The notes under the pieces were generated by a model, which was not told the origin of the DNA, ran no database searches, and worked only from the letters and a program-made list of their open reading frames with translations. The position numbers and the translations under genes are program-made. 64,000 nucleotides of DNA from a virus (lineage: Duplodnaviria; Caudoviricetes). Positions 326-64,000 of the stretch are shown one piece after another; positions within the stretch are counted from its first letter, which is position 1; each line of letters starts with the position of its first letter. Location: the IMG/VR virus record IMGVR_UViG_3300006173_000003, positions 1 to 64,000 of that record, one strand, 5' to 3'.

Positions 326-348
326 AAAAAGCCCCTTATTTAGGGGCT
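325..348 (-). terminator. Rho-independent terminator for the minus-strand lipoprotein gene
   Basis: Stem AGCCCCT/AGGGGCT (330-336/342-348), 5-nt loop, A6 run at 325-330 (U-tract on the minus strand). Confidence 0.75.
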
Positions 349-656
349 ATGATCTGCACGTATTTTTTGTTAACCTGCTGATATCTATAGGAATGTATTG
401 CGTTTGGGACCTTTAGGGTGTCTGTTTGGATCTTCATGGCCCAGAGGGTGTCTGTATGCCAGAACCCCACCGTGGAACTACTGTCTACCGGAAGGAAGGT
501 GCGGGTAGTCTGGTAGATTCCAGTGAACAGGAATGGCCCCTGAACGGAGTCTTTATAGACTACCTGAACGCTGTCCAGATTGGGGATGAATTTAACGGAG
601 GGGTGTCCGCAGGAAATCAAGGCGACGACAGCCAGAAGAGAACAAATTTGCTTCAT
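336..656 (-). CDS. Small lipoprotein
   Basis: From ATG 656: MKQICSLLAVVALISC, a basic N-terminus, hydrophobic core and lipobox Cys. Confidence 0.75.
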   Translation of the reverse strand: MKQICSLLAVVALISCGHPSVKFIPNLDSVQVVYKDSVQGPFLFTGIYQTTRTFLPVDSSSTVGFWHTDTLWAMKIQTDTLKVPNAIHSYRYQQVNKKYVQIIAPK

Positions 657-4585: not shown

Positions 4586-4999
4586 TTACCAGAAATGAAC
4601 TACGCCATAAATAGGATATTCTTTCATTTTATCTCCAAAGCCTCCAATAACAAGCGTAGTTAAATCCTGTGTGATATCGCTGTATAATATCGAATATATT
4701 CCCCTCTCTGTTTCGTACATATATACAACGACCCCTGCACTATCCATGAAAATAAATGGTTTCTGTGTTTTAAACCTTTCGCTTTTAATGACTTTCCCTG
4801 TCTGTAATACAGAGCCCCCAATAACTATATCTTTGTATACGACTGAATCATGAAATCCCCAATCGATATGCCCTTTCCCTTTAGGGTTGTCTGTGGAAAA
4901 TAAATAACTATGCTGAATATCTCTAGGTTGTTTTACTTTAAATTGCCCATTACTGAATATAGCAGACAGCAAAAGGGTTATTGTTAATGTGTATTTCAT
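4586..4999 (-). CDS. Secreted protein with a Sec signal peptide
   Basis: MKYTLTITLLLSAIFSNG-Q; a Gln after the predicted cleavage site is typical of Bacteroidota. Confidence 0.65.
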   Translation of the reverse strand: MKYTLTITLLLSAIFSNGQFKVKQPRDIQHSYLFSTDNPKGKGHIDWGFHDSVVYKDIVIGGSVLQTGKVIKSERFKTQKPFIFMDSAGVVVYMYETERGIYSILYSDITQDLTTLVIGGFGDKMKEYPIYGVVHFW

Positions 5000-5013: not shown

Positions 5014-5316
5014 TTAATCCCATTTACTGGCGTATTTTCTATATACAGACAGGCTATCCTGCGCTTGTTTTCTCATGTGAAGCTCTACGTTTAAACATAT
5101 ACTATCTACTTTTATTTTTATGCCTTCGTGTAGTATTTTGTCTATTCGTAGAGTACTTTTACTCACTTCATCTTGCCAATAACAATAGGTAATCCATTCA
5201 ATTGGTCCATCATAATCCAGATATGCTTCATAGGAGCCCTTCTTATGTCCATCTGGATAGTAATCACTATGACAAGACACAAGGAATAAGATAAGCAAAC
5301 CGAATAATAGTTTTAT
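5014..5316 (-). CDS. Lipoprotein (probable ATA start at 5316)
   Basis: (M)KLLFGLLILFLVSC lipobox when read from the ATA that overlaps the upstream TAA. Confidence 0.55.
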   Translation of the reverse strand: MKLLFGLLILFLVSCHSDYYPDGHKKGSYEAYLDYDGPIEWITYCYWQDEVSKSTLRIDKILHEGIKIKVDSICLNVELHMRKQAQDSLSVYRKYASKWD

Positions 5317-12816: not shown

Positions 12817-12840
12817 TAAAAATTAAAATTAGAACAGATT

Positions 12841-13480: not shown

Positions 13481-13483
13481 ATT

Positions 13484-13843: not shown

Positions 13844-13853
13844 AATATTCAAT

Positions 13854-14222
13854 ATGGGAAAATATCTAACAGTTGAAGAGAGGTTGAAAGTCCTCGAACT
13901 AAAAAAACAAGGGATGCAGCAAAAGAACATTGCCAAGGTAATAGGCCGGTCTCCATCTGCCGTATCTTACCTTATCAACAAAGGAGAATATTCTGTACTA
14001 AGAATGAAAGTAGATGCAGAAGTACCTCAAAAGACAAAGGACGCGGAACGACCTCCGGAGAAAGACCTGTCTTCTTTACCAGATACCGTTCTTTTCAAAC
14101 ACGTAAACTGGGCTATACCCATACTTATAGTCATTGTTATTGGGGTGTCTTCATGTGCTTCAAAGAGAAAAATTCAACATGATCCACATCCAATTTTAAA
14201 TATGAAAGGAAGGGTACTATGA
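13854..14222 (+). CDS. HTH protein with a C-terminal hydrophobic segment and lipobox-like motif
   Basis: LTVEERLKVLELKKQGMQQKNIAKVIGRSPSAVS (HTH), then WAIPILIVIVIGVSSC. Confidence 0.6.
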   Translation: MGKYLTVEERLKVLELKKQGMQQKNIAKVIGRSPSAVSYLINKGEYSVLRMKVDAEVPQKTKDAERPPEKDLSSLPDTVLFKHVNWAIPILIVIVIGVSSCASKRKIQHDPHPILNMKGRVL

Positions 14223-14392
14223 AGCTAATTATAGTTGGAGTTATATTTTTCTATTCCTGCTGTCCTTCCAGAGATCCGAAAACTGGAAAATTTTGGACAA
14301 GTGAGCATGTATGGAAGAGAATGGTAGCCAGAAACTTTAACCACTGTAAAATTTACTATGACCGATTTGATAACCCAATACCTTACAAGTAA
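14219..14392 (+). CDS. Small lipoprotein (57 aa, not in the ORF track)
   Basis: MKLIIVGVIFFYSCC; overlaps both neighbours (ATGA and TAATG). Confidence 0.6.
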   Translation: MKLIIVGVIFFYSCCPSRDPKTGKFWTSEHVWKRMVARNFNHCKIYYDRFDNPIPYK

Positions 14393-15036
14393 TGTGGACT
14401 AATTTCTTTTCTCGGATAGTTTTGATAAATCTTCGCAGCAGGCCGGATAGACTTATAGAAAGTTCATTGGAATTAAAACGGCACAAGATACCATTTGAAG
14501 TGGTCAATGGCATAAAGAACGAAAACGGGCAGCAAGGAATATCAGATACGTTGAGGGGGCTATTCCGGAACTCCCTTGATGCCGGACATCGTAATTTATT
14601 GGTATTCGAGGATGATGTCCAAATGGTAGTAGAACCAGAGGAATTTGAACGAGTAATGGATTTGGCCTTAATTGAACTTCCATATAACTATGATATGCTG
14701 TACCTGGGGGCTAATTTACCTAACCCCAGAAGAGTATCCGAATATTCCGCCCATTTGCTGAGAACAATTCGTGCTCTTGCTCTTCATGCTGTAGCCTATA
14801 GTCGCCGTGGAATGGAAGAAATACTTTCACTGGAACCACGGTTGCCTATTGACCTCCAAATAGCTGAGGAGATCAACACGGCAGGAGGTTCATTCGTAAC
14901 CTATCCCCTACTTTGTACTCAGAAAGAATCGTTCTCAGATATCGAAAAGAGACCTACAAACTATGCCTGCTTCATTGAAGACCGATACAAGGAAGTAGAA
15001 AAATATTTGGGATTATCTAAAAGTTCCTTACCTTAG
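14392..15036 (+). CDS. Glycosyltransferase family 25
   Basis: INLRSRPDR, LVFEDD, DMLYLG, ALHAVAYS, LCTQ. Confidence 0.85.
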   Translation: MWTNFFSRIVLINLRSRPDRLIESSLELKRHKIPFEVVNGIKNENGQQGISDTLRGLFRNSLDAGHRNLLVFEDDVQMVVEPEEFERVMDLALIELPYNYDMLYLGANLPNPRRVSEYSAHLLRTIRALALHAVAYSRRGMEEILSLEPRLPIDLQIAEEINTAGGSFVTYPLLCTQKESFSDIEKRPTNYACFIEDRYKEVEKYLGLSKSSLP

Positions 15037-15040
15037 CACT

Positions 15041-15167
15041 GCTTCAGAAAACCTCAATGTAACAAATTTATCATTTTTCTTTTTTAAGATAGAGAGTTAC
15101 CGCAGGTTGAATTCTTGATGTTTTACGACGTTAGGTTTTCTGAAGCCCCTGCGGTAACTCTTTTTTA
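15041..15167 (+). promoter_or_regulatory. Two interleaved perfect 14-bp inverted repeats ending in a U-tract (attenuator, pseudoknot or invertible element)
   Basis: A 15041-15054 pairs with A' 15133-15146; B 15093-15106 pairs with B' 15148-15161; T run follows; ATG at 15171. Confidence 0.7.
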
Positions 15168-15170
15168 TTT

Positions 15171-15863
15171 ATGAAACTATCTCTCGCCATAACTAACTTC
15201 AATAGGTATGATCTGCTGCTTAAATCCTTTGAGCAAATGGTGGATGATTCTAGGATTTCAGAAATAATAATTTACGACGATGCGAGTGACTGGGATGTTC
15301 AGGAGTCCCTAAGAGAATTAGTGAAGGGATTCCCCGACAAAGTAAAACTTTTCCTTGGAGTAAAAAATGTCGGCATGAGCCGAGCAAAAAGAAACGCCAT
15401 TTCGTTATGCGAAAATGAATTTGCGATTATCCTAGACTCAGACAACGTTATATCCCCGTCATATATCGATGCACTGGAAGGATTCTTCTGGGACGACGGA
15501 ACGATTATGATGCCGGAGATGGCGGCTCCTAATTTTGACTATCGGGCGTTCTCTGGCGTAACATTCGATTCAAGCAACGTGAACGAGTATTTGGATAGGC
15601 CGCTATTCGAAGCCCTACTAAATACGTCGAATTATGTAGTTCCTGTTTTGGAATATTTGAAAGTCTATCAGGAAGACAAAACAGTAAAAGAAACAGACAC
15701 AGTTCACTTCGCATACCATTGGCTGAGAAATGGATACCAGTTTAAGGTAATTGAAGGACTCCGGTATGATCATCTTGTACATCCTGATAGCGGCTGGTTA
15801 AAGAACGCTTCATACAACTCAGCAAGAGGAAAACAAACTATTGAACAAATACGGGCGCTATGA
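15171..15863 (+). CDS. Glycosyltransferase family 2 (GT-A)
   Basis: LAITNFNR, IIYDDAS, NVGMSRAKRNAI, IILDSDN. Confidence 0.85.
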   Translation: MKLSLAITNFNRYDLLLKSFEQMVDDSRISEIIIYDDASDWDVQESLRELVKGFPDKVKLFLGVKNVGMSRAKRNAISLCENEFAIILDSDNVISPSYIDALEGFFWDDGTIMMPEMAAPNFDYRAFSGVTFDSSNVNEYLDRPLFEALLNTSNYVVPVLEYLKVYQEDKTVKETDTVHFAYHWLRNGYQFKVIEGLRYDHLVHPDSGWLKNASYNSARGKQTIEQIRAL

Positions 15864-16612
15864 TCTACAACAGGCTCCTTGGCGGATTAGGCAATCAACT
15901 TTTCCAACACGCATGCGCGATTGGATTGAGTAAAAAATGGGGTATGGATTACTGCGCACCTTCGGAGTCTATTAATCCAAACGTGTGGCCCGCATATAAG
16001 CTCCCCGGATTGAACTACTGTAAGGAGGGTGTCGTTACTGCTGTATTTTATAAAGAACCTACCCATGCCTTTCACGAAATACCCTTTCACCCAAATATTA
16101 TCCTTGAAGGATATTGGCAGTCGTACAAGAGGTTCGACTTCTGTAGAGAAGAGGTTATGAAGGCTTTTGGATTCGATGACCTCGATTGCAACTACGGGAC
16201 CGTAGGGTTGCAAATAAGAAGGGGAGACTATTTAAAGTTTCCTCTACATCACCCCGTTGTTACGTTGGAATATATTCGAATGGCAGCAGAGAAGATAAAA
16301 GGGGATTACGAATTTTTGGTCTTTACTGACGACGAAGAATGGGCGAAAGAGAACATTACTTCTGAGTTGCTGGGGGATAGGTATTTTGAAATAATCGAAA
16401 AGGGAGATGCGCTGAATGATTTGACGTATCTGGCAATGTGCGAGAAGCATATAATTTCAAACTCCACGTACGGATGGTGGGGCGCGTGGTTAAGCAATAG
16501 CACGAATAAGCAAGTTGTAACCCCATCAGAGGATAATTGGTTTGGAGAAAGGAATAAGCATCTATCCGTGGCTGATCTTTTATTGCCTGAATGGGAACGA
16601 ATAAAATTTTAA
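15860..16612 (+). CDS. Alpha-1,2-fucosyltransferase, glycosyltransferase family 11
   Basis: GGLGNQLFQ, EGYWQS, QIRRGDY, VFTDD, IISNSTYGWWGAWL. Confidence 0.9.
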   Translation: MIYNRLLGGLGNQLFQHACAIGLSKKWGMDYCAPSESINPNVWPAYKLPGLNYCKEGVVTAVFYKEPTHAFHEIPFHPNIILEGYWQSYKRFDFCREEVMKAFGFDDLDCNYGTVGLQIRRGDYLKFPLHHPVVTLEYIRMAAEKIKGDYEFLVFTDDEEWAKENITSELLGDRYFEIIEKGDALNDLTYLAMCEKHIISNSTYGWWGAWLSNSTNKQVVTPSEDNWFGERNKHLSVADLLLPEWERIKF

Positions 16613-16614
16613 TC

Positions 16615-16836
16615 ATGCCGATAACAGAAGTGGAATGGAGGAAATATTCCGAAAAGCAATATCCTCTTGGGAAGATTTCACAAAAAAGGAAAATTGTTAG
16701 GTGTAGTAAGCCGGATACGGCTTGGTACAAGGATATGATTGGTCAGGTGGTTGACGTTCATTATTTCGTTACATTCGGAGCGTGGACAACGGACGGAAAA
16801 TATATTGATTACTATGATTTATCAAATCCATTGTAA
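16615..16836 (+). CDS. Hypothetical protein (SH3-like beta pattern)
   Basis: 73-aa ORF inside the glycan cluster. Confidence 0.5.
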   Translation: MPITEVEWRKYSEKQYPLGKISQKRKIVRCSKPDTAWYKDMIGQVVDVHYFVTFGAWTTDGKYIDYYDLSNPL

Positions 16837-17379
16837 ATGACACTTCAACAACTAGCGGATAAGTACGGGAGCGACAAAAGTGGAACTAATGGTCACGGGT
16901 ACATACAGTACTATGAAAAACACCTTCCGGCTGAATGCGACTCTCTGCTTGAAATTGGAATACTTAGAGGCGGAAGCATGAGGATGTGGAAGGAGTATCT
17001 GCCAAACACCCGGCTGTATGGCGCTGACCTGTTCATTGAACATCCAGAGCCAAAGATAGAAGGAGTAGAATGGTTTAAAGCTAATCAACTTGATCATGAG
17101 TTCCTTTACCACGTAAGGAACGACGTAAAGCCACAGGTGATTATTGAAGATTGCTCTCATAACTGCCGGGATCAAATCGTGACATTTTTTTCTTTGATAG
17201 GGTCGTGCGAACTATATGTACTCGAAGATGCCCACACGGCAGCGGAAGAGTTTTACAGGCAAGGATTGCCATTCGAAGCAACAATGCTGGGCATGATGAA
17301 GTCCGGAAGCTTCCCGTTCGAATTTGACCTTTATGATGATAAAATTGCGTTCATAAAAAATAAAGTAAAATGCTCTTAA
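16837..17379 (+). CDS. Class I SAM-dependent (sugar O-)methyltransferase
   Basis: KYGSDK..HGY...Y, LLEIGI..GGS.RMW, IIEDCSH, YVLED. Confidence 0.8.
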   Translation: MTLQQLADKYGSDKSGTNGHGYIQYYEKHLPAECDSLLEIGILRGGSMRMWKEYLPNTRLYGADLFIEHPEPKIEGVEWFKANQLDHEFLYHVRNDVKPQVIIEDCSHNCRDQIVTFFSLIGSCELYVLEDAHTAAEEFYRQGLPFEATMLGMMKSGSFPFEFDLYDDKIAFIKNKVKCS

Positions 17380-18002
17380 ACTTCACTGAAATATTAAAAA
17401 AGTATCAAATTAAACCAAAGGCTGTTATTGTTGTAGGCGGACATTGGGGGGAAGAACACAACGACTACTTGTCCAATGGAATTAGCCGGATGGTATACAT
17501 TGAACCATGCGCCAAGGCGTTTGCAGAATTGAAGCGCCGATTTCAGTTTGCCAGTAACGTGAAGTTGTTCAACCTTGCCTGCGGAGATGAAACTGGGCAA
17601 TCGATTATGTACACCGGAGACAATACTGTCAATCATGGGCAGAGCAATAGCTTGCTTAAACCGGCCAAACACAAAGAAATTCACCCAACGGTTTTGTTCA
17701 CAGATGAAGAAACCGTTGATGTTGATCTGCTGGACAACTTGGGATTGGCCAACAAGGGGTATGATTTATTGGTGATGGACGCTCAGGGATATGAAGGGTA
17801 TGTACTACGAGGTGGCAAGGAAACATTGAAACAAATAAACTGGGTCTATTCCGAGATCAATTTTGACAGCGTGTACGAAAATTGCACACAAGCCGAAGAA
17901 TTGGACGCCTTATTGTCTGACTTTGAAAGGGTAGAAACAGGAACAAAGGTCGGCGGCATGTGGTCGGATGCTTTTTATATTCGCAAATCCCTGCTTAAAT
18001 GA
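17370..18002 (+). CDS. FkbM-family methyltransferase
   Basis: VGGHWGEE, IEP, VDLLD, LVMDAQGYEGYVLRG, EIN. Confidence 0.9.
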   Translation: MLLNFTEILKKYQIKPKAVIVVGGHWGEEHNDYLSNGISRMVYIEPCAKAFAELKRRFQFASNVKLFNLACGDETGQSIMYTGDNTVNHGQSNSLLKPAKHKEIHPTVLFTDEETVDVDLLDNLGLANKGYDLLVMDAQGYEGYVLRGGKETLKQINWVYSEINFDSVYENCTQAEELDALLSDFERVETGTKVGGMWSDAFYIRKSLLK

Positions 18003-18841
18003 TACGAGTACCAGACGAATTTAGGCCAGTAGAGAAGCATCGGTATCCCGCCGACAACCTTTGTCCATTTGAAGAGTGGTATGCTCAAAATCATCCTCCA
18101 GATGTTAATGGAAGAGAGTATTTGGGGGTAATGTGGACGGGATATTATAAGAACCATAGCTACGGCAACGATAAGGCGGCTATCGAAAGGCTTCAAGGAT
18201 GGCTCGATTCCCTGTCGACGGATAAAAAGTACTACGCAGTGTGCCAATACGACAATGGCCCGCTGAATGACCTGTCTCATTTGGATGTGAAATTGTTTTG
18301 CATGTCTGGGGGGCCGGAAGGATTTATTCCCATACCGCTTGTTTGCTCTCCCCATCCCTATAAATTCCCAGAAGTTGAAAAGGATATCCTGTGTTCTTTT
18401 ATTGGTAGGTTGACGGACCCGATCAGAAACGAAATAGTAATGTGGGGGAATGGAAGAAAGGATTGTTACGTAACCGCCGCCCCCCATCCACTAGAAGCCT
18501 ATTGTAAAATTCTAGCAAGGTCTAAGTTTGTCTTAGCTCCGCGTGGGTTCGGTCCGTCCTCTTTTCGCGTTTGCGAGGCGTTGCAGTATGGAGCAATGCC
18601 CTTCTTGTTCGGGAATCATGGAGATGTTATATTCGAGACAAAGGTTCTTCTGTTTTTTCAAACCTATTCGGATTGGTATGATCCGGATCATCACCATGAT
18701 CTTGAAAAATATCTGACAGAGAAGCAGAAAGAAATTGACCGAAGCCATATAGGAGCAACATATAGCATGTTTTACACATTTGGGGGCGTCAGATCTTACA
18801 TCATTCACCAATTGACGTATGGAGATACATTGCATTCATGA
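17999..18841 (+). CDS. Exostosin-like glycosyltransferase (GT47)
   Basis: KDILCSFIG, SKFVLAPRGFGPSSFRVCEALQYGAMP. Confidence 0.85.
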   Translation: MIRVPDEFRPVEKHRYPADNLCPFEEWYAQNHPPDVNGREYLGVMWTGYYKNHSYGNDKAAIERLQGWLDSLSTDKKYYAVCQYDNGPLNDLSHLDVKLFCMSGGPEGFIPIPLVCSPHPYKFPEVEKDILCSFIGRLTDPIRNEIVMWGNGRKDCYVTAAPHPLEAYCKILARSKFVLAPRGFGPSSFRVCEALQYGAMPFLFGNHGDVIFETKVLLFFQTYSDWYDPDHHHDLEKYLTEKQKEIDRSHIGATYSMFYTFGGVRSYIIHQLTYGDTLHS

Positions 18842-19412
18842 TAAAAAAAGAGCGGATCGGTTCGATCTACTGCAAAAAGAGATAACTACCCAAGGATTAA
18901 CCGTCCGGTACTGGCCTGCTATAAAAGATCCCCTTAATAGATCGTTTGTAGGGATATCCCAAGCCCATAAGCAGATAGTAAGGTGGGCGGCAACAGAAGG
19001 ACTCCCGGAGGTCTGTATCATGGAGGATGACTGTTATTTCTTCGCACCAGGAGCATGGGATTACTACCTGAGCCAGAAGCCAGAAGACTTTGATCTTTAT
19101 CTGGGAGGGGTATTCCACGGGCTAAATGAGGACAATACAGCAACCGACTACTGTGGGAACACTCTATACATTGTTCATTCCCGATTCTACGCCACGTTTT
19201 TGGATACCAATGAGCTAAACCATCTTGATCGGGCGCTTGCCGGAAAGGGGCGTTATGTAGTCTGTGACCCGATGGTTGTAAGCCAGCATGGAGGCTTTTC
19301 GGACAATAAATTGCGCCACGATAGCTATGAAAGGTACTTGGTAGGCAAAAGATTGTTCGGCGGAGTGAAGTATGACCGCATAAACGTCGATAAATCAATA
19401 AAAAATCCGTAA
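18819..19412 (+). CDS. Glycosyltransferase family 25
   Basis: GISQAHKQI, CIMEDD, FDLYLGG, YIVH. Confidence 0.8.
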   Translation: MEIHCIHDKKRADRFDLLQKEITTQGLTVRYWPAIKDPLNRSFVGISQAHKQIVRWAATEGLPEVCIMEDDCYFFAPGAWDYYLSQKPEDFDLYLGGVFHGLNEDNTATDYCGNTLYIVHSRFYATFLDTNELNHLDRALAGKGRYVVCDPMVVSQHGGFSDNKLRHDSYERYLVGKRLFGGVKYDRINVDKSIKNP

Positions 19413-19426
19413 ATTAATCGGATAAC

Positions 19427-20230
19427 ATGCCCAATACTTTAATTGATCCAATTTTAAATGATGTGGTTTATAGCCTCCTTTACGGTGCATCATATGAAGA
19501 AAAAAGAGGTTTAAAGGGGAAATATCTTCGGGCAGCGATGAGCGGAGAGAAAGCTAAACGCTTTTGCGCTAACAGTACCAGAGAAGAAAAGGAGTATCTT
19601 TTAGCTCACTTTGGGATCAGGTTTTTCTATGTGTTTTCCAAAAATGGAGTTGGATTTGCAAAAATAAAGGGACTCTTAGCCCAATTTGATAATGGTAAAA
19701 GGGTTGCTGCACTAAAGGATATTGCCGAACAGGGTATTTTCGTAACATCAGATAAAGAGGTTGTTCGGGGGCTGGGGATTATGGCGCAGTCTATTCATCA
19801 TCATTCCTATTTCCTAAACCTAGAATTCGTCCGGCAGGGATACCACATACAGAAATGGAAGAAGCATAGTACTAATAATCAGGACATTGCTGCTAGGGAA
19901 GCGGACGAAAGTGCTAAATTAGTGGCCAGTACGTTATTAAGCGGCTGTATTACTATGGATTACGTCGAGGGACTGTCTGGTATCTCGCCTACGGCAATGA
20001 AGATATTGCTGCATCTTTATTCGTTAAGCCATACTTATGTCCCCGATCAGGTATTGTATGACAGATTTGCCGGAGCCTTCAATAAAACAAAGTATCGGTA
20101 CGCTATAAAAGCCTTATTGAAGGAAGACCTGATTATCCAACATGGCCCGAAGCTTAAGAGAGAGATTACTATCACTTCCGCAGGCGTGAAACACGTCAAT
20201 AATTTCATGGATTCTGCTATGAAAATTTGA
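19427..20230 (+). CDS. Probable transcription regulator with a C-terminal MarR-like winged helix
   Basis: GISPTAMKILLHLY...IKALLKEDLI...ITITSAG. Confidence 0.55.
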   Translation: MPNTLIDPILNDVVYSLLYGASYEEKRGLKGKYLRAAMSGEKAKRFCANSTREEKEYLLAHFGIRFFYVFSKNGVGFAKIKGLLAQFDNGKRVAALKDIAEQGIFVTSDKEVVRGLGIMAQSIHHHSYFLNLEFVRQGYHIQKWKKHSTNNQDIAAREADESAKLVASTLLSGCITMDYVEGLSGISPTAMKILLHLYSLSHTYVPDQVLYDRFAGAFNKTKYRYAIKALLKEDLIIQHGPKLKREITITSAGVKHVNNFMDSAMKI

Positions 20231-20273
20231 TATTTGTGATTCATGGAACGTATCGTGGAACAAAATGTAAGTT

Positions 20274-20450
20274 ATGCCAGCAAGATTCTTCAAAAAACCT
20301 CCAAAAACAACCTGCTCTAAATGCGGGAATCCGATTGATCGAAATGGCAGATATTGTAAATCCTGTCATAAAGAGTATATGCGAGCCCAAAGAAGGAAAC
20401 AGCGGGCAGAACTGGAAGAATTGAGAAATTTTAAAATGACACATGTATGA
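20274..20450 (+). CDS. Small double-CxxC Zn-ribbon protein (58 aa, not in the ORF track)
   Basis: MPARFFKKPPKTTCSKCGNPIDRNGRYCKSCHKEYMR...; ATGA overlap with 20447. The listed 20227-20424 ORF is a different frame. Confidence 0.65.
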   Translation: MPARFFKKPPKTTCSKCGNPIDRNGRYCKSCHKEYMRAQRRKQRAELEELRNFKMTHV

Positions 20451-57546: not shown

Positions 57547-58326
57547 ATGATTGACGTATACGACTTATATCAGAGCTTTTGCAGTACATACAATTTGTAC
57601 TTAGGCGGATGGTTTCGACCTAACACCGATTTTTTGCAAAAATGCAATGATATAAGTAAGGAGTTGTGGGTAAAGTGGACGGAAGAAGCAGAGAAATCTC
57701 AGGAAGCAAAAGATAATCTTTTGCCATTTCTTGTTTCTAAGAATATCATAGTATCCAATAAGGGACCGTATGGAACTTTTCCAATCCCAAAAGATGAAGA
57801 GAAGCCATATGGAAGGTTTTCGGCAGCTAGGATCATTGTTTCGGGAAAACATTGTGTTCCTTGCAAAGAGGTAGACGGAGGCAGGTGTTCTAATGGTGAT
57901 TTTACCAGCTCGGAACAATTGGCCGAAGATTATTACAATACAATTGAGCAAACAGATGTTGATCTTGTCGATAATCAGAAATGGGGAGCTTGTAATTCTC
58001 ACTTGACTAAAAAACCTTCTCTTAAAAAGCCAAAGATGAGGCAGATAGACGATGGATTTCAGGTTGCTCCAAGGGAGGTTAGCGTTATAGTATTGGATTA
58101 TTACAGGCCACCAAAAGAGGCAACGTTTGTGTATGATAAGAGTCCGGGTAATGAACAAACTGGGGCTGGGGATATGATAATCTATGATCAGAAAAATAGC
58201 CAACCATTAGAATGGCCTTTTAATATAAGAGAAGAGTTTTTGAATCGTTTGGGACAGGCTTATGGAACTTTTACAAAGGATCAGTTTCTTAGCCAATTTT
58301 CAGCACAACAAAAAGCAGCAAGCTAA
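57547..58326 (+). CDS. Putative tail ring/tubular protein (start at ATG 57547, not 57367)
   Basis: MIDVYDLY...; VLDYYRPPKEA.F.Y...L.W pattern of ring proteins. Confidence 0.55.
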   Translation: MIDVYDLYQSFCSTYNLYLGGWFRPNTDFLQKCNDISKELWVKWTEEAEKSQEAKDNLLPFLVSKNIIVSNKGPYGTFPIPKDEEKPYGRFSAARIIVSGKHCVPCKEVDGGRCSNGDFTSSEQLAEDYYNTIEQTDVDLVDNQKWGACNSHLTKKPSLKKPKMRQIDDGFQVAPREVSVIVLDYYRPPKEATFVYDKSPGNEQTGAGDMIIYDQKNSQPLEWPFNIREEFLNRLGQAYGTFTKDQFLSQFSAQQKAAS

Positions 58327-59087
58327 TGCCTAGTCAAGATTTTACCACATTGCAGCAATTGTTAAACTATACTAATACGTACTTCGTTACCAATGGGGTT
58401 AATTCCATCACCGGAGACGAAGGGAATAATATATTGAATGGGTTCGGAAAGTTTATTCAGTCGTACACAATGAATAACGGGTTGGCCGGAATATCTTCTA
58501 GTAGCGGCGTCGTTCCTTTGTCTAAGCCTGTAACTATATTTTCAGTTGCTCCGACTTCGTTTAATTGGACCGACAATGTTCAACAAGAGTATTATATCGT
58601 AAACGCCACTGGTGTTGCCATAAATGCGACATCGGGATATTCCTTTGTGGATGCATATGGGACAACGCAGACATCCATTGCGGCTAGGGATTCGGTACAT
58701 ATTGCTAAGGCGACGAATGGGACATGGTATAGAATAAACAACGTTTCCGGGTCTGCATCTGGCGGATTGCCTCCGATGACTGGTAATGCAGGAAAAGGTC
58801 TGTTCACCGATGGAACAAGCGCGTTTTGGGGAGATAATGTTCTCCAGATACCAGCAGGAGACGCAAATTATACCGATGCTACAACATGGGTAAATGGAAG
58901 TAGCTATAATCTGGTGCTTCCGAGTCCTCATTTCTTGCTGTTTTGGAACGAGACCAACAGATTCTTGCTAAGAAATATAAGTCCAGTCGAGTACGGATAT
59001 GTAACAAATGGGTTTAAAGTTTTTGTTCCGGGATTTGACGGATCAAATTCAAATGTATTTTTATTATTCAAAGGAGCAACTTCGTAA
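58326..59087 (+). CDS. Tail fibre anchor / collar protein
   Basis: FVTNGVNSITG..N.IL N-terminus; PMTGNAGKGLFTDGTSAFW fibre motif. Confidence 0.6.
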   Translation: MPSQDFTTLQQLLNYTNTYFVTNGVNSITGDEGNNILNGFGKFIQSYTMNNGLAGISSSSGVVPLSKPVTIFSVAPTSFNWTDNVQQEYYIVNATGVAINATSGYSFVDAYGTTQTSIAARDSVHIAKATNGTWYRINNVSGSASGGLPPMTGNAGKGLFTDGTSAFWGDNVLQIPAGDANYTDATTWVNGSSYNLVLPSPHFLLFWNETNRFLLRNISPVEYGYVTNGFKVFVPGFDGSNSNVFLLFKGATS

Positions 59088-59089
59088 GC

Positions 59090-62000
59090 ATGAAAAAAAT
59101 ATTATTCATAGTAGGTCTTCTGATCGGTTTTCAGGTTGCTTTTTCGCAATCCAGCCCTACCTTTTTGCCTCCAAGGTCATCTGCTACAACTACGGTTCAG
59201 GATTCCAGACTTAGAGCGTTGCTGACATTTTATTATCCACATACGCATGGATTAACGTTAAACGGAGGGTTGGATACTTTGGGAGCCGTTATATACGAAG
59301 ACAGCAGTGGGCACGTCTGGTATAGAGACACTATTCCTGCTGGGGGGCATAGATGGAGAATGATGTTGAGTTTTGGAGATCCAACAGGGGGAGTATCTTC
59401 TTTCAATACAAGAACCGGAGCCGTAACGCTTACGTCTGGTGACGTGATTACAGCGCTTACTTATACTCCAATAAATCCCAATGGAACATCGTCTCAGTAC
59501 ATAGCAGGAGATGGATCAAAAGTTACCTTCCCGACTATACCAGAGCAAATAAATATTACTGATGCTGGTCTCTTTGTTCATTCTGGAAGCTATCCAAATT
59601 ATACGTTTACCGGGAATACTCCTACGCAGCAACAGGTTTTTACTCAGGGATCTACCCTTAATCAAAATAACTTCTGGGTAACAGGAGCGAATGTTTTAGG
59701 AATGACCGGGACGGCAGCTTTCGGATTGCCTACGGGAAGCACATCGCAACGCCCATCGTCTGCCGGAGTAGGATATTTCAGATACAATACCGATAGCGCT
59801 TCAACAGAAACATATAATGGAAGTCAGTGGATTAAAACGGGTACAGGAACGGCCATAACAGGGGTTACAAGTTTCAATACAAGGACGGGTGCTGTTACTT
59901 TGAACTCCTCTGATGTTACAACCGCATTGGCTTTTACGCCATATAATTCCACCAATCCGGCTGGCTATATTTCTAATATAACTGGAAAAATAATTAATGG
60001 AGCCAATATAGTCATAACCGGAAGCGGAACCGGTGTTGATCCATATGTAATCATCGGAACTGGTGGTGGGGGAGGTGGGGGGAATACCAATTCAAATATT
60101 GGATCGGGGTATAGGTTTGCGGTTCCCAACACCAACAGTATAAAAACTTTATTCTGTTCAGGATGTACGTTGGATAGCACCACGAATGCCAATGCTCTTA
60201 CATTAACGGTAACTGGGGGTAGTGGAATTACCCAATTAACAGGGGATGGAACCGCTGGGCCAGGATCGGGAAGCCAGGCATTTACTTTAACGACCGTCAA
60301 TAGTAATGTAGGAACTTTTGGAAGTGCATCATCGGTTCCTGTTTTTGTCGTCAATGGAAAGGGTCTTGTGACCGGCGTAACGAATACATCAATTCAGATA
60401 ACTGAATCTCAGGTAACGAATTTAACAACAGATTTGGCTGGCAAGCAACCAACTGGAAATTATATAACTGGGATTACTGGAGATGTTGTCGCCACTGGCC
60501 CCGGATCGGTAGCCTCTACAATTCAAGCAAACGCGGTAACTACAGGAAAAATAAATAATAACGCTGTTACCTATGCAAAATTTCAAGCCTCTTCTCAAGC
60601 TGCTTTATTGGGGACAAATGCTGCCGGAAATTTTGGAGAAATAACGTTGGGGACTGGATTGTCTTTTAGCGGCTCAGTTTTAAATGCAACAGGGGGAGGG
60701 TCTCAGACATTAACGTATACTCAGCTTGCTCTCAATAACACACTGTCTATTAGTGGGGGTAATACCCAGACATTTCTTGTAGCTACCCACGCTTTGGCAG
60801 GGTTAATGGATTCTGCATCAAAAGCCGTTGTAGACAGCTTGCGCCTTAGAACTTATACTTTTCCTTCTGGCAGCGGATTGACGGCAGGAGGAGGATTCTC
60901 TCCATTATTCACCAATACGGTAACTGGGTCTACTCTTAATTTTGTTGCCTCCAATGCTGCTGCTAATTCTGCTTTTGGAAATTTTACTGGATCACCAGCG
61001 CCGGCAGCATTTGGGAAACTTCCCCTTGCAGCAATGGCTACAGGAACAGCCAATACTCTAATAGGATATGATGGGTCTGGTAATCCTTCGGGAATAACAG
61101 TGGGCTCCGGATTGTCGCTGGTTAGCGGTACATTAAGCTCTACAGCAGGAGGAGGTAGTGTTACAAGCGTAGGACTCGCATTGCCCGCTAGTTTATTTGC
61201 TGTTTCTGGTTCCCCCGTCACCGGTGCGGGAACTTTAACCGGTTCATTCAATACTCAAAACGCAGGATTCGTTTTAGTGAGCGATTCGGTAAATAATGGT
61301 CAAGTGCCTACCATGCGTCATCTTGTGGTTAAAGACCTTCCAGTATTTAGCCCGTGGCCCGCAGAGGCTCCAATGGGAACCATATACAGTAAATCAGCAT
61401 GGTCATTGCCGGTCACAGATTTTATTCCCGGACCAATAGCTCAGCTAACATATGCAATCAGCACAGAAGGTTATTTAAATGTTACAGGTCCATCCGCAGT
61501 AACGTTTAACAACTATGCTAGAGTGTTACAGCAAAGACCGACCCAGCTACCCAGATTTACGGAGACTGTCGTTTTTAAAATGCTGACCACTCCTGCCGCT
61601 GGAACGGTAGGATTTGGAATAGGCATTAAACAAAACAATGGAGCCATTGGAGATTTCACGGCATATGTCAATACGACAAATAGCGGATCTTCTGGCTTTC
61701 TTACCATCGTTCGTTCAGACGGTAGCGTTACTTATCAGAGTGGGTCCAGTTCAAATACTGTACACTTGAATGATGTCATGCAATTAAAGGTTGTGTATGC
61801 CGACTCCGTTGTAACGGCTTTTTTGACTAATATAACTACTGGTATTACGTCTACTCCATTAGTATGGACAAATACCATCCCAAGTGCTGTTAGTCCTCTT
61901 TTTACGGATTGTAGTTTTTCTTTTACACCATTTGGGCCAGCCACATACCAAATCCAATCCTATACTATTACCTCTGAAACCATTAGGAATGCAAATATGA

Positions 62001-64000
62001 TTTTCATTGGGGACTCAAAGACCCAAGGATTTAAGGCTAATTTTTTCAATGGTAGATTCGGGTGGCAAATGGGACAGTCTTTCCCGTCTGCTGTAATTTG
62101 GGCTGGAGGTTCCAATAAAACTACTGATGTCCTTCTGCAAATGGACGAATTGTCCCAATTGAACGGAGCCAATATTTTTATGAGTCTTGGATCGAATGAT
62201 ATTCGGGGAGGAGCTACAGTGACAGCAACAATGATTAACTATAACAGAATAGTTAATATGCTCCGCGCCTATGGTGCCAACGTATATCACATGGTATTCC
62301 CAGAAGACTCTACGTCTACTGGAGTTGGATTAACAGCGCTGAAGAATGCAATACTAGCAACATACCCTACAACATATATAGACACATGGGACACGCTTTC
62401 TACAGCAGGAAATAATATTTTAAGAGCCGCTTACCAAGGAGATGCCGTACATCCAAATCAGGCCGGTAATGATGCCATAGTCCGAGCAATTAATGCCAGT
62501 GGATTTGGTAAAGTAATTGCTACAAATAGGAAATCGGCCTATAGAATCACTGATGGTAATATTAAATTCAACGGAGACAGTTTATTCTTATTCCCCATTG
62601 ACAAAAACACAAATTATGTAAACCACTGGACAAGCAATGGTAGTTTTACAACTGGATTATTGCAGGACAATGGAATTGTATCCGGAGCCTCTGCCTCTCC
62701 ATTGGCCCCAGTAGCCAACACCATATTTAATGTTAATGGAGTGCTGGGTATTCAGGGAACAAGTGGTGGAATTTTGTTTTCAGGTAGAGACAACGCAGAT
62801 CAAACAATAGGAGAGGCGGCTATTTTTTGCTCAAATTATGCTATTCGGTATTTTGCCAATGGAGTCCAGACATTCTCTGTAGATTCCGCAGGAAGAGCAG
62901 CGATAGGCAATGTGGCTGTAGGCAATGGAGTAAATGCGTTCTTGTCTATAAGCCCTGGTCTTGCCGCTAGACCCCCTCTTAGATTTACTGTTAATGGGTC
63001 GGTGCTAACATCAACCCCACAGGCAGGCGCATTAGAGGTATTAGTTGATAGCCTTTATTTTACAGGGAATAATGGTACAAGGAACAAAATATGGCCACAA
63101 TCCGCAAGTGGAGGTAATCCATTTGCAGACAACACCGCATTGGTAAAGAATAATGCAGACAACACAAAATTGCTAATCTTAAGCGCTGCATCCATTTCCA
63201 CAGCAACCACAAGGACGGCAACCTTCCCAGATGCAAATATCACTGTAGCAGATAAATTAAGCCCTTTAAGCCAATTCGCTTCTACCACATCTGCTCAATT
63301 ACTTGGAGTCATTTCAGACGAAACAGGGACCGGATCATTGGTATTTGGGACATCTCCAACTATTGCTACACCCCTCTTCACTGGATTAACAAGTTCAGGA
63401 GCCAATGACTCAGTTCTTACTGTTGATCCTACCACTGGGCAATTACATAGAAGATCTGGGGCTTTCAATTTATTCTTCGCAAACGGATTGACAGCAGCAG
63501 GAGGGGATAGTGCATATTGGGGAGGAACTTTAAATCAGCCCACTACCATTTCTGGAGCCGGATTCCCTGTATCGTTGGGGACTTCGGGAAGCAACTTAGG
63601 AGGTCTATCTATTACAGGTGGAAAGTATAACAGTGCGCAAGGGTCTCAAATATTAGGTGTGGCCTCGACCATAAATAATGCTATAACAGCAGGTAGCGGG
63701 AACGTTACCAATTTTTCTGCATACGCTTTCTTGGCCCCCACGATTACTAGTACGAATACTTCGGTTACTTATACAACTCCATCCACTTTATATATTGACA
63801 ATGCCCCAACGCTAAGCACAAATTCTTCTGCAACTGGGAGGGTGTATGCATTAAATGTAAACGCAGGAATAAATCACTTTGGATTAGGGCCTGCTAATGT
63901 TACTGCTCTTTTTGATGGTTGTGTATTTGTAGGAAATGCAACTATAACCGGAAACACATTGTTAGGCATTGGACCTTCAACTGCTACTCAAACAGCGGTT
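59090..64000 (+). CDS. Very large tail-fibre/spike-like protein with an N-terminal Sec signal peptide and an SGNH hydrolase domain (at least 1637 aa, runs off the window, not in the ORF track)
   Basis: Frame open by hand translation from ATG 59090 to 64000; MKKILFIVGLLIGFQVAFS-Q; fibre motifs SFNTRTGAVTL x2, LPTGSTSQRP, SDETGTGSLVFGTSPT; GDS/GSND/DAVHP at about 61990-62495. Confidence 0.85.
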   Translation, partial: MKKILFIVGLLIGFQVAFSQSSPTFLPPRSSATTTVQDSRLRALLTFYYPHTHGLTLNGGLDTLGAVIYEDSSGHVWYRDTIPAGGHRWRMMLSFGDPTGGVSSFNTRTGAVTLTSGDVITALTYTPINPNGTSSQYIAGDGSKVTFPTIPEQINITDAGLFVHSGSYPNYTFTGNTPTQQQVFTQGSTLNQNNFWVTGANVLGMTGTAAFGLPTGSTSQRPSSAGVGYFRYNTDSASTETYNGSQWIKTGTGTAITGVTSFNTRTGAVTLNSSDVTTALAFTPYNSTNPAGYISNITGKIINGANIVITGSGTGVDPYVIIGTGGGGGGGNTNSNIGSGYRFAVPNTNSIKTLFCSGCTLDSTTNANALTLTVTGGSGITQLTGDGTAGPGSGSQAFTLTTVNSNVGTFGSASSVPVFVVNGKGLVTGVTNTSIQITESQVTNLTTDLAGKQPTGNYITGITGDVVATGPGSVASTIQANAVTTGKINNNAVTYAKFQASSQAALLGTNAAGNFGEITLGTGLSFSGSVLNATGGGSQTLTYTQLALNNTLSISGGNTQTFLVATHALAGLMDSASKAVVDSLRLRTYTFPSGSGLTAGGGFSPLFTNTVTGSTLNFVASNAAANSAFGNFTGSPAPAAFGKLPLAAMATGTANTLIGYDGSGNPSGITVGSGLSLVSGTLSSTAGGGSVTSVGLALPASLFAVSGSPVTGAGTLTGSFNTQNAGFVLVSDSVNNGQVPTMRHLVVKDLPVFSPWPAEAPMGTIYSKSAWSLPVTDFIPGPIAQLTYAISTEGYLNVTGPSAVTFNNYARVLQQRPTQLPRFTETVVFKMLTTPAAGTVGFGIGIKQNNGAIGDFTAYVNTTNSGSSGFLTIVRSDGSVTYQSGSSSNTVHLNDVMQLKVVYADSVVTAFLTNITTGITSTPLVWTNTIPSAVSPLFTDCSFSFTPFGPATYQIQSYTITSETIRNANMIFIGDSKTQGFKANFFNGRFGWQMGQSFPSAVIWAGGSNKTTDVLLQMDELSQLNGANIFMSLGSNDIRGGATVTATMINYNRIVNMLRAYGANVYHMVFPEDSTSTGVGLTALKNAILATYPTTYIDTWDTLSTAGNNILRAAYQGDAVHPNQAGNDAIVRAINASGFGKVIATNRKSAYRITDGNIKFNGDSLFLFPIDKNTNYVNHWTSNGSFTTGLLQDNGIVSGASASPLAPVANTIFNVNGVLGIQGTSGGILFSGRDNADQTIGEAAIFCSNYAIRYFANGVQTFSVDSAGRAAIGNVAVGNGVNAFLSISPGLAARPPLRFTVNGSVLTSTPQAGALEVLVDSLYFTGNNGTRNKIWPQSASGGNPFADNTALVKNNADNTKLLILSAASISTATTRTATFPDANITVADKLSPLSQFASTTSAQLLGVISDETGTGSLVFGTSPTIATPLFTGLTSSGANDSVLTVDPTTGQLHRRSGAFNLFFANGLTAAGGDSAYWGGTLNQPTTISGAGFPVSLGTSGSNLGGLSITGGKYNSAQGSQILGVASTINNAITAGSGNVTNFSAYAFLAPTITSTNTSVTYTTPSTLYIDNAPTLSTNSSATGRVYALNVNAGINHFGLGPANVTALFDGCVFVGNATITGNTLLGIGPSTATQTAV

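Follow-up and report, generated by a model that had tools for sequence, protein, structure and literature searches.

A fibre-like gene with an export-type leader ends the structural module

The window analyzed here, a stretch of 64,000 nucleotides, belongs to a 73-kb viral contig that encodes a terminase and a primase-helicase and is 68% complete by CheckV. On the plus strand at 59090..64000 it contains a fibre-like open reading frame that continues past the window end to contig position 64396 and encodes 1768 amino acids in full. The ORF begins 3 nt past the stop codon of the gene before it, which also belongs to the structural module. Among the large genes of that module the ORF comes last, ahead of a holin-like gene and the lysis genes, the same location at the end of the structural module as in crAss001. 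No second fibre-like gene was seen on the part of the genome that the contig covers.

The first 19 residues (59090..59146) have the features of a Sec/SPase I-type signal peptide: they start with MKK, contain a hydrophobic core and end in AFS, with Gln at position +1. M1, K2 and K3 are invariant across 15 homologues, Gln20 is invariant in our alignment A1, and [AGSC]-Q is found at the leader end in 41 of 42 signal-bearing homologues. Gln directly after the leader cleavage site is the Q-rule of Bacteroidetes (PMC5837995). Signal peptides were called from sequence features only, by our own hydrophobicity heuristic, which misfires occasionally and flagged a few cytoplasmic proteins (e.g., a 715-aa structural protein in the relative L089). 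By this heuristic, the fibre is predicted to be exported by a canonical n-h-c leader followed by Gln20; both export and cleavage are inferred. The Q-rule leaders also give indirect support to a host among the Bacteroidota, as do the terminase, whose nearest relatives are in Flavobacterium and Maribacter phages (25% identity), and DUF5907 repeat modules that also occur in proteins of Flavobacterium, Pedobacter and Segetibacter. Because no prophage relative is known, the host itself cannot be assigned.

The leader is followed by a conserved N-terminal domain (approximately residues 20-270; 59147..59899) in which the invariant columns of A1 cluster, and which is likely the attachment end. With this domain as the query, relatives were found in JGI/ENA metagenomes; the scan gave no match in 185,579 species genomes and none in IMG/VR. 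Residues 377-754 (60218..61351) form a module that tblastn also found in signal-less fibres of other phages (IMG/VR contigs L001-L017). In most of the L001-L017 fibres with this module, a signal peptide is missing and the glycosylation motif described below is not in excess. An SGNH/GDSL esterase domain spans residues 972-1128 (62003..62473; Pfam PF13472, E=4e-14, 53.8 bits against a cut-off of 32.9), and reading of the sequence found esterase blocks I, II, III and V all present, as GDS, G, GSND and DAVH. The last 469 residues had no Pfam match at E<0.01, a type IX secretion C-terminal sorting domain of the Por_Secre_tail type included, and the C-termini in the fibre family are of several unrelated kinds.

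When the fibre was compared with 50,697 phage records by tblastn, the only match was 39 residues long, and homology to an annotated tail fibre spans only 2% of the 1768-aa protein. Sequence searches with the fibre gave no match in the PDB, and in PHROGs only families of unknown function and no named match. Some of its modules are common to signal-less fibres with collagen-like and S74-chaperone domains. From the gene position and this module homology we infer that the protein is a virion fibre; for its presence in the virion, also an inference, the sole support is by analogy with the MS-supported, leader-bearing virion proteins of the Cellulophaga phages phi10:1 and phi18:3. The upstream neighbor, a signal-less gene of 253 aa (58326..59087, plus strand), has 1 copy of the motif compared to 0.76 expected. 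In L087, L089/L090 and L091, homologous N-termini are encoded just before the fibre, and the gene in relatives is always immediately 5' of a signal-bearing fibre. Its product is a candidate for an adaptor on the particle.

The fibre has an excess of O-glycosylation sequons

The motif of the general O-glycosylation system of Bacteroidota is D-(S/T)-(A/I/L/V/M/T) (Veith et al. 2022, PMC8729774; Hoffmanns et al. 2025, PMC12871550). The initial annotation of this DNA had counted 15 such sequons by hand in the fibre, and had taken as a premise that the system acts only on exported proteins; both papers state that its action is restricted to the outside of the cytoplasm. Translation of 59090-63997 returned exactly these 15 sites, with none missed and none extra. 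All lie on the plus strand. D62-T-L (59273..59281) and D80-T-I (59327..59335) are kept as sequons in 14 of 14 aligned homologues, and at D235-S-A (59792..59800) the Asp is present in 14 of 14 and the sequon in 11; these three positionally conserved sites are all in the N-terminal domain. Conservation of D62 and D80, which are located amid invariant His and Gly, could instead be structural. Outside these three, the positions of the sites turn over while their density is maintained. The sequon is found in 5 of 13 aligned homologues at D362-S-T (60173..60181), 2 of 8 at D574-S-A (60809..60817), 3 of 9 at D582-S-L (60833..60841), 2 of 7 at D905-S-V (61802..61810), 3 of 12 at D1440-S-V (63407..63415), and 5 of 13 at D1473-S-A (63506..63514), which is the last one; the position of D732-S-V (61283..61291) is not conserved. 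D1073-S-T (62306..62314) and D1101-T-L (62390..62398) are within the esterase domain, in which GDS-K is not a sequon, and the remaining sites are D1163-S-L (62576..62584), D1265-S-A (62882..62890) and D1320-S-L (63047..63055). The final 295 residues of the fibre have no sequon, and across the enriched fibre family sequons are at background density in the C-terminal 150 aa.

The numbers of Asp residues (about 53) and of sites expected from composition (about 5) in the initial annotation were also accurate. The part of the fibre within the window has 53 Asp and a composition-based expectation of 5.5 sequons, and residue shuffles of it likewise gave a mean of 5.5 (sd 2.2; P=1.5e-4 for 15). The full-length protein (contig 59090-64396) has 59 Asp and still 15 sequons, with none beyond the window. 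The excess withstood the shuffle test that had been proposed for the full protein: residue shuffles gave 6.08 ± 2.31 sequons and reached 15 in 37 of 50,000 cases (P=7e-4), and dipeptide-preserving shuffles gave a mean of 8.2 and reached 15 in 6 of 5,000 (P=1.2e-3). As the excess survived both types of shuffle, we rejected an artefact of composition. Each step of the motif contributed, with Ser or Thr after 20 of the 59 Asp residues (binomial P=0.05) and A/L/V/I/M/T at the third position in 15 of these 20 (P=0.005). Read in reverse order, as [ALVIMT]-[ST]-D, the motif was at chance (7 compared to 6.1). Inflation by internal repeats was rejected, as the 15 sequons have 15 distinct local contexts and do not lie in internal repeats. 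Based on the shuffles, both motif steps, the reverse motif and the distinct contexts, we conclude that the enrichment is real and approximately 2.5-fold. The fibre alone gives a significance of ~1e-3, and the comparative data described below make it far stronger. The density of sequons is 0.85 per 100 aa in the fibre and about 1 per 100 in its family.

Enrichment in signal-bearing homologues follows the published motif preferences

We assembled a comparison set of 78 homologues, in which signal-bearing refers to a Bacteroidota-type signal peptide. The first IMG/VR scan with the fibre gave mainly signal-less fibres of other phages, which were usable as controls only; the signal-bearing homologues (n = 41) came from Logan and ENA. 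These 41 were enriched, with 685 sequons compared to 239 expected (O/E 2.87). Equal enrichment in signal-less fibres would have refuted the initial annotation, and 30 signal-less homologues were not enriched (158 compared to 214; O/E 0.74). Because the homologues are related, the pooled P values overstate independence. We also counted only non-redundant sequence, that is, sequence without alignment to an earlier protein. The excess persisted (235 compared to 77.8 over 20,740 residues, P~1e-46; 32 of 35 proteins above expectation), and inflation by homologous copies was rejected.

Specificity was assessed at each position of the motif. At position 1, Asp alone was enriched (2.87), with Glu at 0.56 and Asn at 0.88. 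Ser (4.1) exceeded Thr (1.9) at position 2. Position 3 was enriched for L (4.0), I (3.5), V (3.3), T (2.25), A (2.15), M (2.0) and S (1.75), and for Cys (2.9, from 7 sites only), and D, E, H, P, Q, N, Y and W were at 0-0.5. The reverse motif was at 0.79. Glycoproteomic data indicate a slight preference for Ser and, at the third position, the order L, I, V, T, A, S, M (PMC12871550); the ranking at position 3 in the fibre family is nearly the same as this published order. The enrichment thus mirrors the specificity of O-glycosylation at each position, and within this phage it is confined to proteins of the exported type, which supports the reading of these sites as glycosylation sites.

Exported proteins of Bacteroidota do not share this enrichment in general; we rejected that possibility using 400-kb samples from two genomes as a host baseline. 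Signal-bearing Pedobacter and Flavobacterium proteins had O/E of 0.97 and 0.93, only one of 151 was as extreme as the fibre, and exported proteins of the two genomes had 0.27 sequons per 100 aa.

Exported-type proteins of this phage and of other phages

The same difference was found between the proteins of this phage. ORFs of the exported type had 42 sequons compared to 12.6 expected, with 27% of their Asp residues in sequons, and the remaining ORFs had 44 compared to 47.9, with 3.8% (Fisher odds ratio 9.3, P=8e-19). The exported set was still enriched without the fibre (27 compared to 6.5). It includes a small lipoprotein-like ORF on the minus strand (336..656) with a leader ending in LISC and 4 sequons among 6 Asp. 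Two other small minus-strand ORFs are similar: one at 4586..4999 has a signal peptide ending in SNG, then Q, and 2 sequons compared to ~0.5 expected, and one at 5014..5298 is lipoprotein-like, with a leader ending in LVSC and 2 sequons compared to 0.3. A lysis protein of 223 aa carries 8 sequons; tblastn of this protein against phage records gave no match. In the syntenic relatives L087-L091, signal-peptide-type ORFs had 119 sequons compared to 39 expected and the rest 14 compared to 21.5, and the contrast between exported and other proteins was the same in IMG/VR contigs G003, G005, G006, G009 and G010. In crAss001, a phage of Bacteroides intestinalis, gp27 has 4 sequons compared to 0.4 expected.

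Leader-bearing late proteins are also found in cultured Cellulophaga phages. Gp091-094 of phi10:1 (KC821618) and gp085-087 of phi18:3 (KC821620) all have Q-rule leaders and are annotated as structural from MS/MS proteomics. By analogy, these two phages would provide a precedent for signal-bearing proteins in virions. As in the phage studied here, three to five consecutive, large, late, leader-bearing proteins close the structural module. Unlike the fibre, these proteins are sequon-poor (5 compared to 13.6 expected in phi10:1; 3 compared to 10.0 in phi18:3), phi46:3 is likewise depleted (3 compared to 16.1), and the leader-bearing proteins have no detectable sequence similarity to the fibre. 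Signal-bearing fibres of contigs L003 and L007 also had no enrichment. Because of these two and the depletion in the cultured Cellulophaga phages, sequon enrichment cannot be taken as a rule among phage fibres that are exported.

Proposed export, glycosylation and assembly of the fibre

Given its export signal and a number of sequons 2.5 times that expected by chance, the fibre probably leaves the cytoplasm by export and is sugar-coated outside it. The explanation that we favor, and consider likely, is that the 1768-aa protein is the distal host-recognition fibre of an uncultured tailed phage of Bacteroidota and that it is exported, O-glycosylated at many sites and joined to the particle. What we observed comprises the sites, the excess of them over expectation, the specificity of that excess for proteins with a signal peptide and its agreement with the known preferences of the enzyme system; there are no experimental data on export, cleavage or glycans for these phage proteins, and the steps that follow are inferred. 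The fibre would be made with a host-type Sec signal peptide, and its cleavage would expose a Gln N-terminus. In the periplasm, the glycan of the host's general O-glycosylation system would be added to Ser or Thr at many of the 15 sites, although the occupancy of any site is an inference. Selection, for a presumed benefit in stability or from a glycan coat, would hold the density of sites at ~2.5-3 times chance along the shaft and the enzyme part, and the last ~150 residues, presumed to be the receptor-binding tip, would be left at background. Other exported late proteins (RCC1/PKD, beta-helix and a signal-anchored protein of the lysis module) would be treated alike. The glycosylated fibre might then join the particle by its N-terminal domain once lysis mixes periplasm and cytoplasm; the time of attachment is inferred and the route is unexplained.

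In a different explanation, the exported, sequon-rich proteins could be glycosylated without being part of the virion. They would then be periplasmic or secreted phage enzymes (an esterase, a beta-helix depolymerase and an RCC1/PKD binder). Such enzymes could alter the envelope of the infected cell, with a role in release or superinfection exclusion, or could work in free form once the cell has lysed. Sequon-rich host proteins are associated with the periplasm and inner membrane, and abundant surface proteins avoid the motif (PMC8729774). The leader-bearing proteins with MS support as parts of Cellulophaga virions are sequon-poor, and no assembly route from cytoplasm to periplasm is known. We nonetheless think a role outside the virion unlikely, though it deserves to be kept in mind, because the gene has the tail-fibre location at the end of the structural module before lysis, as in crAss001, and encodes a conserved N-terminal domain next to a conserved upstream partner gene. 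Its modules are shared with signal-less collagen-like/S74-chaperone fibres and an annotated tail fibre, and no alternative fibre-like gene was seen on the 73-kb contig, 68% complete by CheckV.

Explanations without glycosylation fare worse. An excess of D-S/T-hydrophobic could reflect a folding motif such as an Asx turn, a strand or helix cap or a metal site, and D62 and D80 are indeed embedded in an invariant His/Gly-rich domain, and the motif recurs in a helix-cap-like manner in the helical 223-aa protein. We regard this as improbable. Folds that are unrelated to one another show the excess (fibre repeats, SGNH, beta-helix and a helical anchor protein), whereas neither the signal-less homologues with shared fibre modules (O/E 0.74) nor the cytoplasmic structural proteins of these phages (O/E about 1.0) do. 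The residue preferences also agree with the glycoproteomic motif at each of the three positions, down to the intolerance of Glu at position 1. We rejected a motif specific to one fold. Chance, or the composition of a protein rich in Thr, Ser, Ala and Leu, has even less to recommend it. The P value for the single protein is only ~1e-3 and many features were scanned at the first stage, but the excess survives residue and dipeptide-preserving shuffles and was replicated in non-redundant sequence (P~1e-46), with the reverse motif and neighboring residue classes at or below chance.

Relation to known systems

To our knowledge, tailed-phage particles are held to be built wholly in the cytoplasm, and we know of no tailed-phage protein that is glycosylated by the host in the periplasm. 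We found no description of such an export-glycosylation route for any tailed phage. Structural proteins of mycobacteriophages are reportedly glycosylated by phage-encoded glycosyltransferases; the capsid and tail-tube proteins are said to be modified in the cytoplasm, without a leader and without a host sequon. That route is cytoplasmic, whereas the fibre described here would use Sec export and then a host periplasmic transferase. SGNH-esterase tailspikes and fibres, such as gp63.1 of phage G7C, deacetylate surface polysaccharide receptors. Like these, our fibre has an SGNH domain with four catalytic blocks inside a long fibre protein. Unlike them it bears a signal peptide; esterase fibres of the gp63.1 type, as far as we know, have none and fold in the cytoplasm.

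Phage genes obeying the leader rule of the host phylum are also found in Porphyromonas gingivalis prophages, which encode proteins with Q-rule signal peptides (Matrishin et al. 2023, PMC10367356), interpreted as adaptation to the host secretion system. Unlike the fibre, those proteins are small, of unknown function and thought to alter the host surface; fibres are not involved, and the paper makes no mention of glycosylation (PMC10367356). The fibre resembles O-glycosylation substrates in its Sec leader, its Gln at +1, the three-residue motif, the matching residue preferences and the predicted location of its sites in soluble non-cytoplasmic parts. It differs from the host substrates in being phage-encoded and tail-fibre-like, with 3-4 times the motif density of exported proteins in two genomes of the host phylum. 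It is still open what the Bacteroidota O-glycan does and which enzymes serve as its transferase and ligase, and a recent review mentions phages nowhere (PMC12871550). Fibres with one sequon per 100 residues, and the 223-aa protein, would, if exported and glycosylated, offer high-density substrates for studying these questions. Enrichment of 3-fold here and depletion to 0.3-fold in Cellulophaga phages are opposite regimes, which would show that selection acts on the motif in phage proteins that are exported. If our explanation is correct, some of the host-recognition apparatus completes its maturation in a compartment other than the cytoplasm and bears a host-made, possibly phage-edited glycan, which has consequences for host range, particle stability and the production or engineering of Bacteroidota phages in foreign hosts.

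A glycosyltransferase cassette is shared with other phages

A cassette at 14392..19412 (plus strand) encodes, by Pfam, GT25-like, GT2, GT11, FkbM methyltransferase and GT47-like proteins, all without signal peptides, and might serve to tailor the glycan. Scanning with GT11 as a single protein gave no match, and relatives of the cassette were found with a methyltransferase alignment instead. GT2 had no match in phi10:1, phi18:3 or phi46:3, and GT11 had none in phi10:1, the only one of the three searched with it. The cassette is nearly the sole part shared between this phage (G000) and five other phage contigs, which represent at least two other backbones and also have sequon-rich, signal-bearing fibres. 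Indeed, all contigs with both the cassette and the fibre region have such fibres; G003 was ascertained via its fibre, not via the cassette, and this co-occurrence leaves out the contigs of the 41 Logan/ENA signal-bearing homologues.

A more speculative possibility, which we hold only tentatively and on balance doubt, is that this mobile cassette rewrites the outer O-glycan. Its cytoplasmic GT2, GT11, FkbM and GT47-like enzymes might edit the outer part of the host's lipid-linked O-glycan, and an unidentified host periplasmic transferase would put the phage-tailored glycan on sequon-dense, Sec-exported fibres. The receptor-binding tip would be left bare, and the glycan-coated fibre would join the particle from outside the cytoplasm. 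Phages with exported fibres and no cassette, such as the Cellulophaga phages, would purge the sequon. A fibre coated in this way would have its analogue in the glycan shields on the spikes of eukaryotic viruses.

Sequon excess in the fibre

The fibre-like ORF (contig 59090-64396, + strand; 1768 aa) continues past the end of the window. It is encoded on a linear contig of 73,438 bp, a single IMG/VR virus record with a CheckV completeness of 68%, whose first 64 kb are the window. Genes for a large terminase and a primase-helicase are also present on this contig, and beyond them it is very divergent. The sole Pfam match of the fibre is an SGNH/GDSL esterase domain (aa 972-1128), with all four SGNH catalytic blocks readable in the sequence. 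Its N-terminus is a Sec leader of textbook type: MKK, a 13-residue hydrophobic core, AFS, and then Gln. Signal-peptide calls throughout this work were heuristic.

We counted matches to D-[ST]-[ALVIMT], the sequon of the Bacteroidota O-glycosylation system. The fibre has 15, at exactly the positions listed in the initial annotation, whose estimates of about 53 Asp and about 5 expected sites also hold (53 and 5.5 for the part of the fibre in the window). The excess survives shuffling of the full-length protein, which gave 6.08 ± 2.31 sites when residues were shuffled (P = 7e-4) and a mean of 8.2 when dipeptides were preserved (P = 1.2e-3). Asp is followed by Ser or Thr in 20 of 59 cases in the full fibre (P = 0.05), and 15 of these 20 pairs have A, L, V, I, M or T in third place (P = 0.005). 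The reverse motif is at chance level. Taken on its own, the fibre has a 2.5-fold excess that is solid, not overwhelming; chance is a poorly supported explanation for it.

Confinement to leader-bearing proteins

ORFs were called across the whole contig and classed by their N-termini. Nine have a signal peptide, lipoprotein box or signal anchor. These are the fibre (15 sequons observed vs 6.1 expected from composition; counts below are given in the same way), an RCC1-like propeller with a PKD domain (contig 64835-66508; 3 vs 2.0), a right-handed beta-helix protein (66505-68409; 7 vs 2.2), a 223-aa protein with a signal anchor, encoded after a holin-like gene (68790-69461; 8 vs 0.7), and five small ORFs (9 vs about 1.6, derived from the set total) whose N-termini are signal peptides, lipoprotein boxes or anchors. 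Together they have 42 vs 12.6 sequons, with 27% of Asp in sequons; the remaining ORFs, a pool from which five small membrane-protein-like ORFs were left out, have 44 vs 47.9 and 3.8% (odds ratio 9.3, P = 8e-19). Without the fibre, the exported-type set still has 27 vs 6.5. There was no enrichment in large signal-less ORFs of the phage (a 2420-aa ORF, 4 vs 6.8; a 1515-aa ORF, 6 vs 5.1; the terminase, 0 vs 2.0).

Among 5.8 billion proteins searched, 78 were homologous to the fibre, with mosaic similarity. A Bacteroidota-type leader is present in 41 of them, which have 685 vs 239 sequons and per-protein ratios from 1.8 to 5.7. In contrast, the 30 without a leader, the signal-less control that the initial annotation had proposed, are not enriched (158 vs 214). 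The homologues are related to one another, a caveat on these pooled counts. When only sequence that could not be aligned to any earlier protein was counted (20,740 residues), there were 235 vs 77.8 sequons (P ~ 1e-46), and 32 of 35 proteins were above expectation. The leader ends in [AGSC]-Gln, the Bacteroidetes Q-rule (PMC5837995), in 41 of 42 homologues. Three signal-bearing homologues with Q-rule-type leaders are depleted (5 vs 32.9 in total), among them a chromosomal Flavobacterium repeat protein (0 vs 8.9).

On the chromosome of Flavobacterium sp. XS2P39, two genes in tandem (L019:6524-11494 and 11515-16560) code for signal-peptide-bearing DUF5907-repeat proteins of about 1650 aa. The first has no sequons among 69 Asp, with 8.9 expected, and the second has 6 vs 11, consistent with the reported avoidance of the motif by surface proteins.

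Residue preferences and position along the fibre

In the signal-bearing family, the ratio of observed to expected sites at the first position was 2.87 for Asp, 0.56 for Glu and 0.88 for Asn. At the second position it was 4.1 for Ser and 1.9 for Thr, and at the third it was 4.0 for L, 3.5 for I, 3.3 for V, 2.9 for Cys (7 sites), 2.25 for T, 2.15 for A, 2.0 for M and 1.75 for S, with D, E, H, P, Q, N, Y and W disfavoured (0-0.5). This pattern was absent from the signal-less homologues. A 2025 review of glycoproteomes reports a slight preference for Ser, a third-position order of L, I, V, T, A, S, M with occasional Cys, Gly and Phe, and no tolerance of Glu in place of Asp (PMC12871550). Of the evidence here, this three-position match argues most strongly that the excess follows the glycosylation machinery, not the fold, and an explanation by a structural motif is poorly supported.

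In an alignment of 15 close homologues, sequons are present at D62 and D80 in 14 of 14 and at D235 in 11 of 14. The other sequons are not conserved in position, and there are still 11-24 per homologue, whichever modules it carries. Sequon density stays level, at about 30% of Asp, until the last tenth of the proteins, where it drops to 7%. In the 41 signal-bearing homologues, 15 vs 19.9 sequons lie in the C-terminal 150 residues and 685 vs 222.8 in the rest (3.07 times expectation). The last 295 residues of the query fibre are sequon-free (its C-terminal 150 aa are at contig 63947-64396). With one representative per tip cluster, there were 3 sequons where about 9.5 are expected at the body rate (P = 0.015). 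Because the tips are partly homologous, this is only suggestive that tips may be spared.

Comparison with host proteins

We applied the same code to 400 kb each of one Pedobacter and one Flavobacterium genome. Signal-bearing proteins were at 0.97 and 0.93 of expectation, respectively, so by these two samples the excess is not simply a general trait of exported Bacteroidota proteins; cytoplasmic proteins were at 0.88 and 1.14. Exported proteins were over-dispersed (chi-square per df of 1.6-1.9, compared with 0.6-1.0 for cytoplasmic proteins), consistent with selection both for and against the motif. Of 151 exported host proteins, just one deviated as far as the fibre. Veith et al. (PMC8729774) found glycosylation on most proteins of the periplasm and inner membrane and no motif in abundant surface proteins, in agreement with the three depleted Q-rule homologues. 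An overall enrichment has been reported for non-cytoplasmic Bacteroidota proteins (PMC12871550). We did not see it in the Pedobacter and Flavobacterium samples, so any general effect is small beside the 2.5-3-fold excess here.

A glycosyltransferase cassette

The phage has GT25-like, GT2, GT11, FkbM methyltransferase and GT47-like genes (window 14392-19412), none with a leader. The cassette is also on five other IMG/VR phage contigs, G003 (13137-20401), G005, G006, G009 and G010, at 36-45% identity. By tblastn it makes up 5-7 of the 6-8 genes common to those contigs and this phage, with nearly nothing else shared, and judged from this distribution the GT2, GT11, FkbM and GT47-like genes behave as a mobile module. 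Leader-bearing fibres on the five contigs have from 8 vs 3.3 to 17 vs 5.5 sequons, and wherever the fibre region is present the cassette occurs on the same contig as such sequon-rich fibres; G003 was ascertained through its fibre, not the cassette. Cytoplasmic-type ORFs in IMG/VR contigs are at 0.98-0.99 of expectation. There was no GT2 match in the five Cellulophaga phages searched (phi10:1, phi18:3, phi19:2, phi46:3 and phi38:1) or in crAss001, Panino and elemoA. The GT11 search, which among cultured phages covered phi10:1 and phi14:2 alone, gave no match in either.

In host O-glycans the outer part is species-specific and is made by a glycosyltransferase locus, and methylation and acetylation are common; the transferase and ligase are still unidentified (PMC12871550). 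The cassette is therefore plausibly linked to sequon-rich fibres, but the support comes from about three lineages.

Proposed pathway and virion incorporation

The motif excess, its confinement to leader-bearing proteins and its residue profile are demonstrated here, by wholly computational evidence. We infer that the fibre would be exported by Sec and cleaved before Gln20, and that a host glycan, perhaps edited by the phage, would then be transferred to many sequons in the periplasm. The fibre could gain stability, for example, or a coat of glycans that covers the shaft and enzyme part and leaves the tip bare. Its conserved N-terminal domain would dock it onto the particle once the compartments mix at lysis.

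In the main rival reading, the protein is likewise exported and glycosylated and is not part of the virion. In Cellulophaga phages phi10:1 (gp091-094) and phi18:3 (gp085-087), consecutive late proteins carry Q-rule leaders and are marked in GenBank as structural from MS/MS proteomics, so leader-bearing proteins can reach virions. Such late proteins are strongly depleted of sequons in phi10:1 (KC821618 41847-48878; 5 vs 13.6), phi18:3 (KC821620 32891-38583; 3 vs 10.0) and phi46:3 (KC821622 30343-38945; 3 vs 16.1), and sequon content is thus non-neutral either way. The three phages together have 11 vs about 40, the opposite of the fibre family.

Full-text literature searches found no paper on phage proteins as substrates of Bacteroidota O-glycosylation. 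Q-rule leaders are known on P. gingivalis phage proteins, with glycosylation unmentioned there (PMC10367356).

Relatives and lysis-module proteins

Syntenic relatives from metagenomes (L087, L089/L090 and L091) share the upstream structural module and have 3-5 consecutive leader-bearing late proteins. Pooled, their signal-peptide-type ORFs have 119 vs 39 sequons and the rest 14 vs 21.5.

The 223-aa protein (+ strand, outside the window; locus L018:9790-10461) has a C-terminal DUF6808 and directly follows a 2-TM holin-like ORF; sequons account for 8 of the 14 Asp. Each of its 26 homologues has 7-8 sequons, in conserved places (194 vs 22 in all), and four of the sites are shared by 24 of 24 members, which are 46-70% identical. 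The protein is a candidate glycosylated spanin-like lysis protein. The gene caller set the start too far downstream, so that its 194-aa version lacks the anchor.

Cultured Bacteroidota phages encode, in the lysis module or close to it, a sequon-rich protein of about 200 aa with a signal anchor: crAss001 gp27 (MH675552 25093-25695; 4 vs 0.4), Panino (6 vs 1.2), elemoA (3 vs 0.8), phi38:1 (3 vs 0.3) and phi14:2 (4 vs 0.6). With these proteins, it could be tested in a cultured system whether a host O-glycosylates a protein of its phage.

The ORF that separates the fibre from the next leader-bearing protein (contig 64406-64834, + strand; 142 aa) has a membrane anchor at its N-terminus and may be a periplasmic assembly helper. 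A small leader-bearing counterpart is in the same place in L091 (11924-12310), and a similar ORF lies two genes past the fibre in L090 (15284-15541). A minus-strand cluster of small leader- or lipoprotein-type ORFs near the contig start (window 336-656, 4352-4558, 4586-4999 and 5014-5298), three of the four with 2-4 sequons each, may be accessory genes that modify the surface or periplasm.
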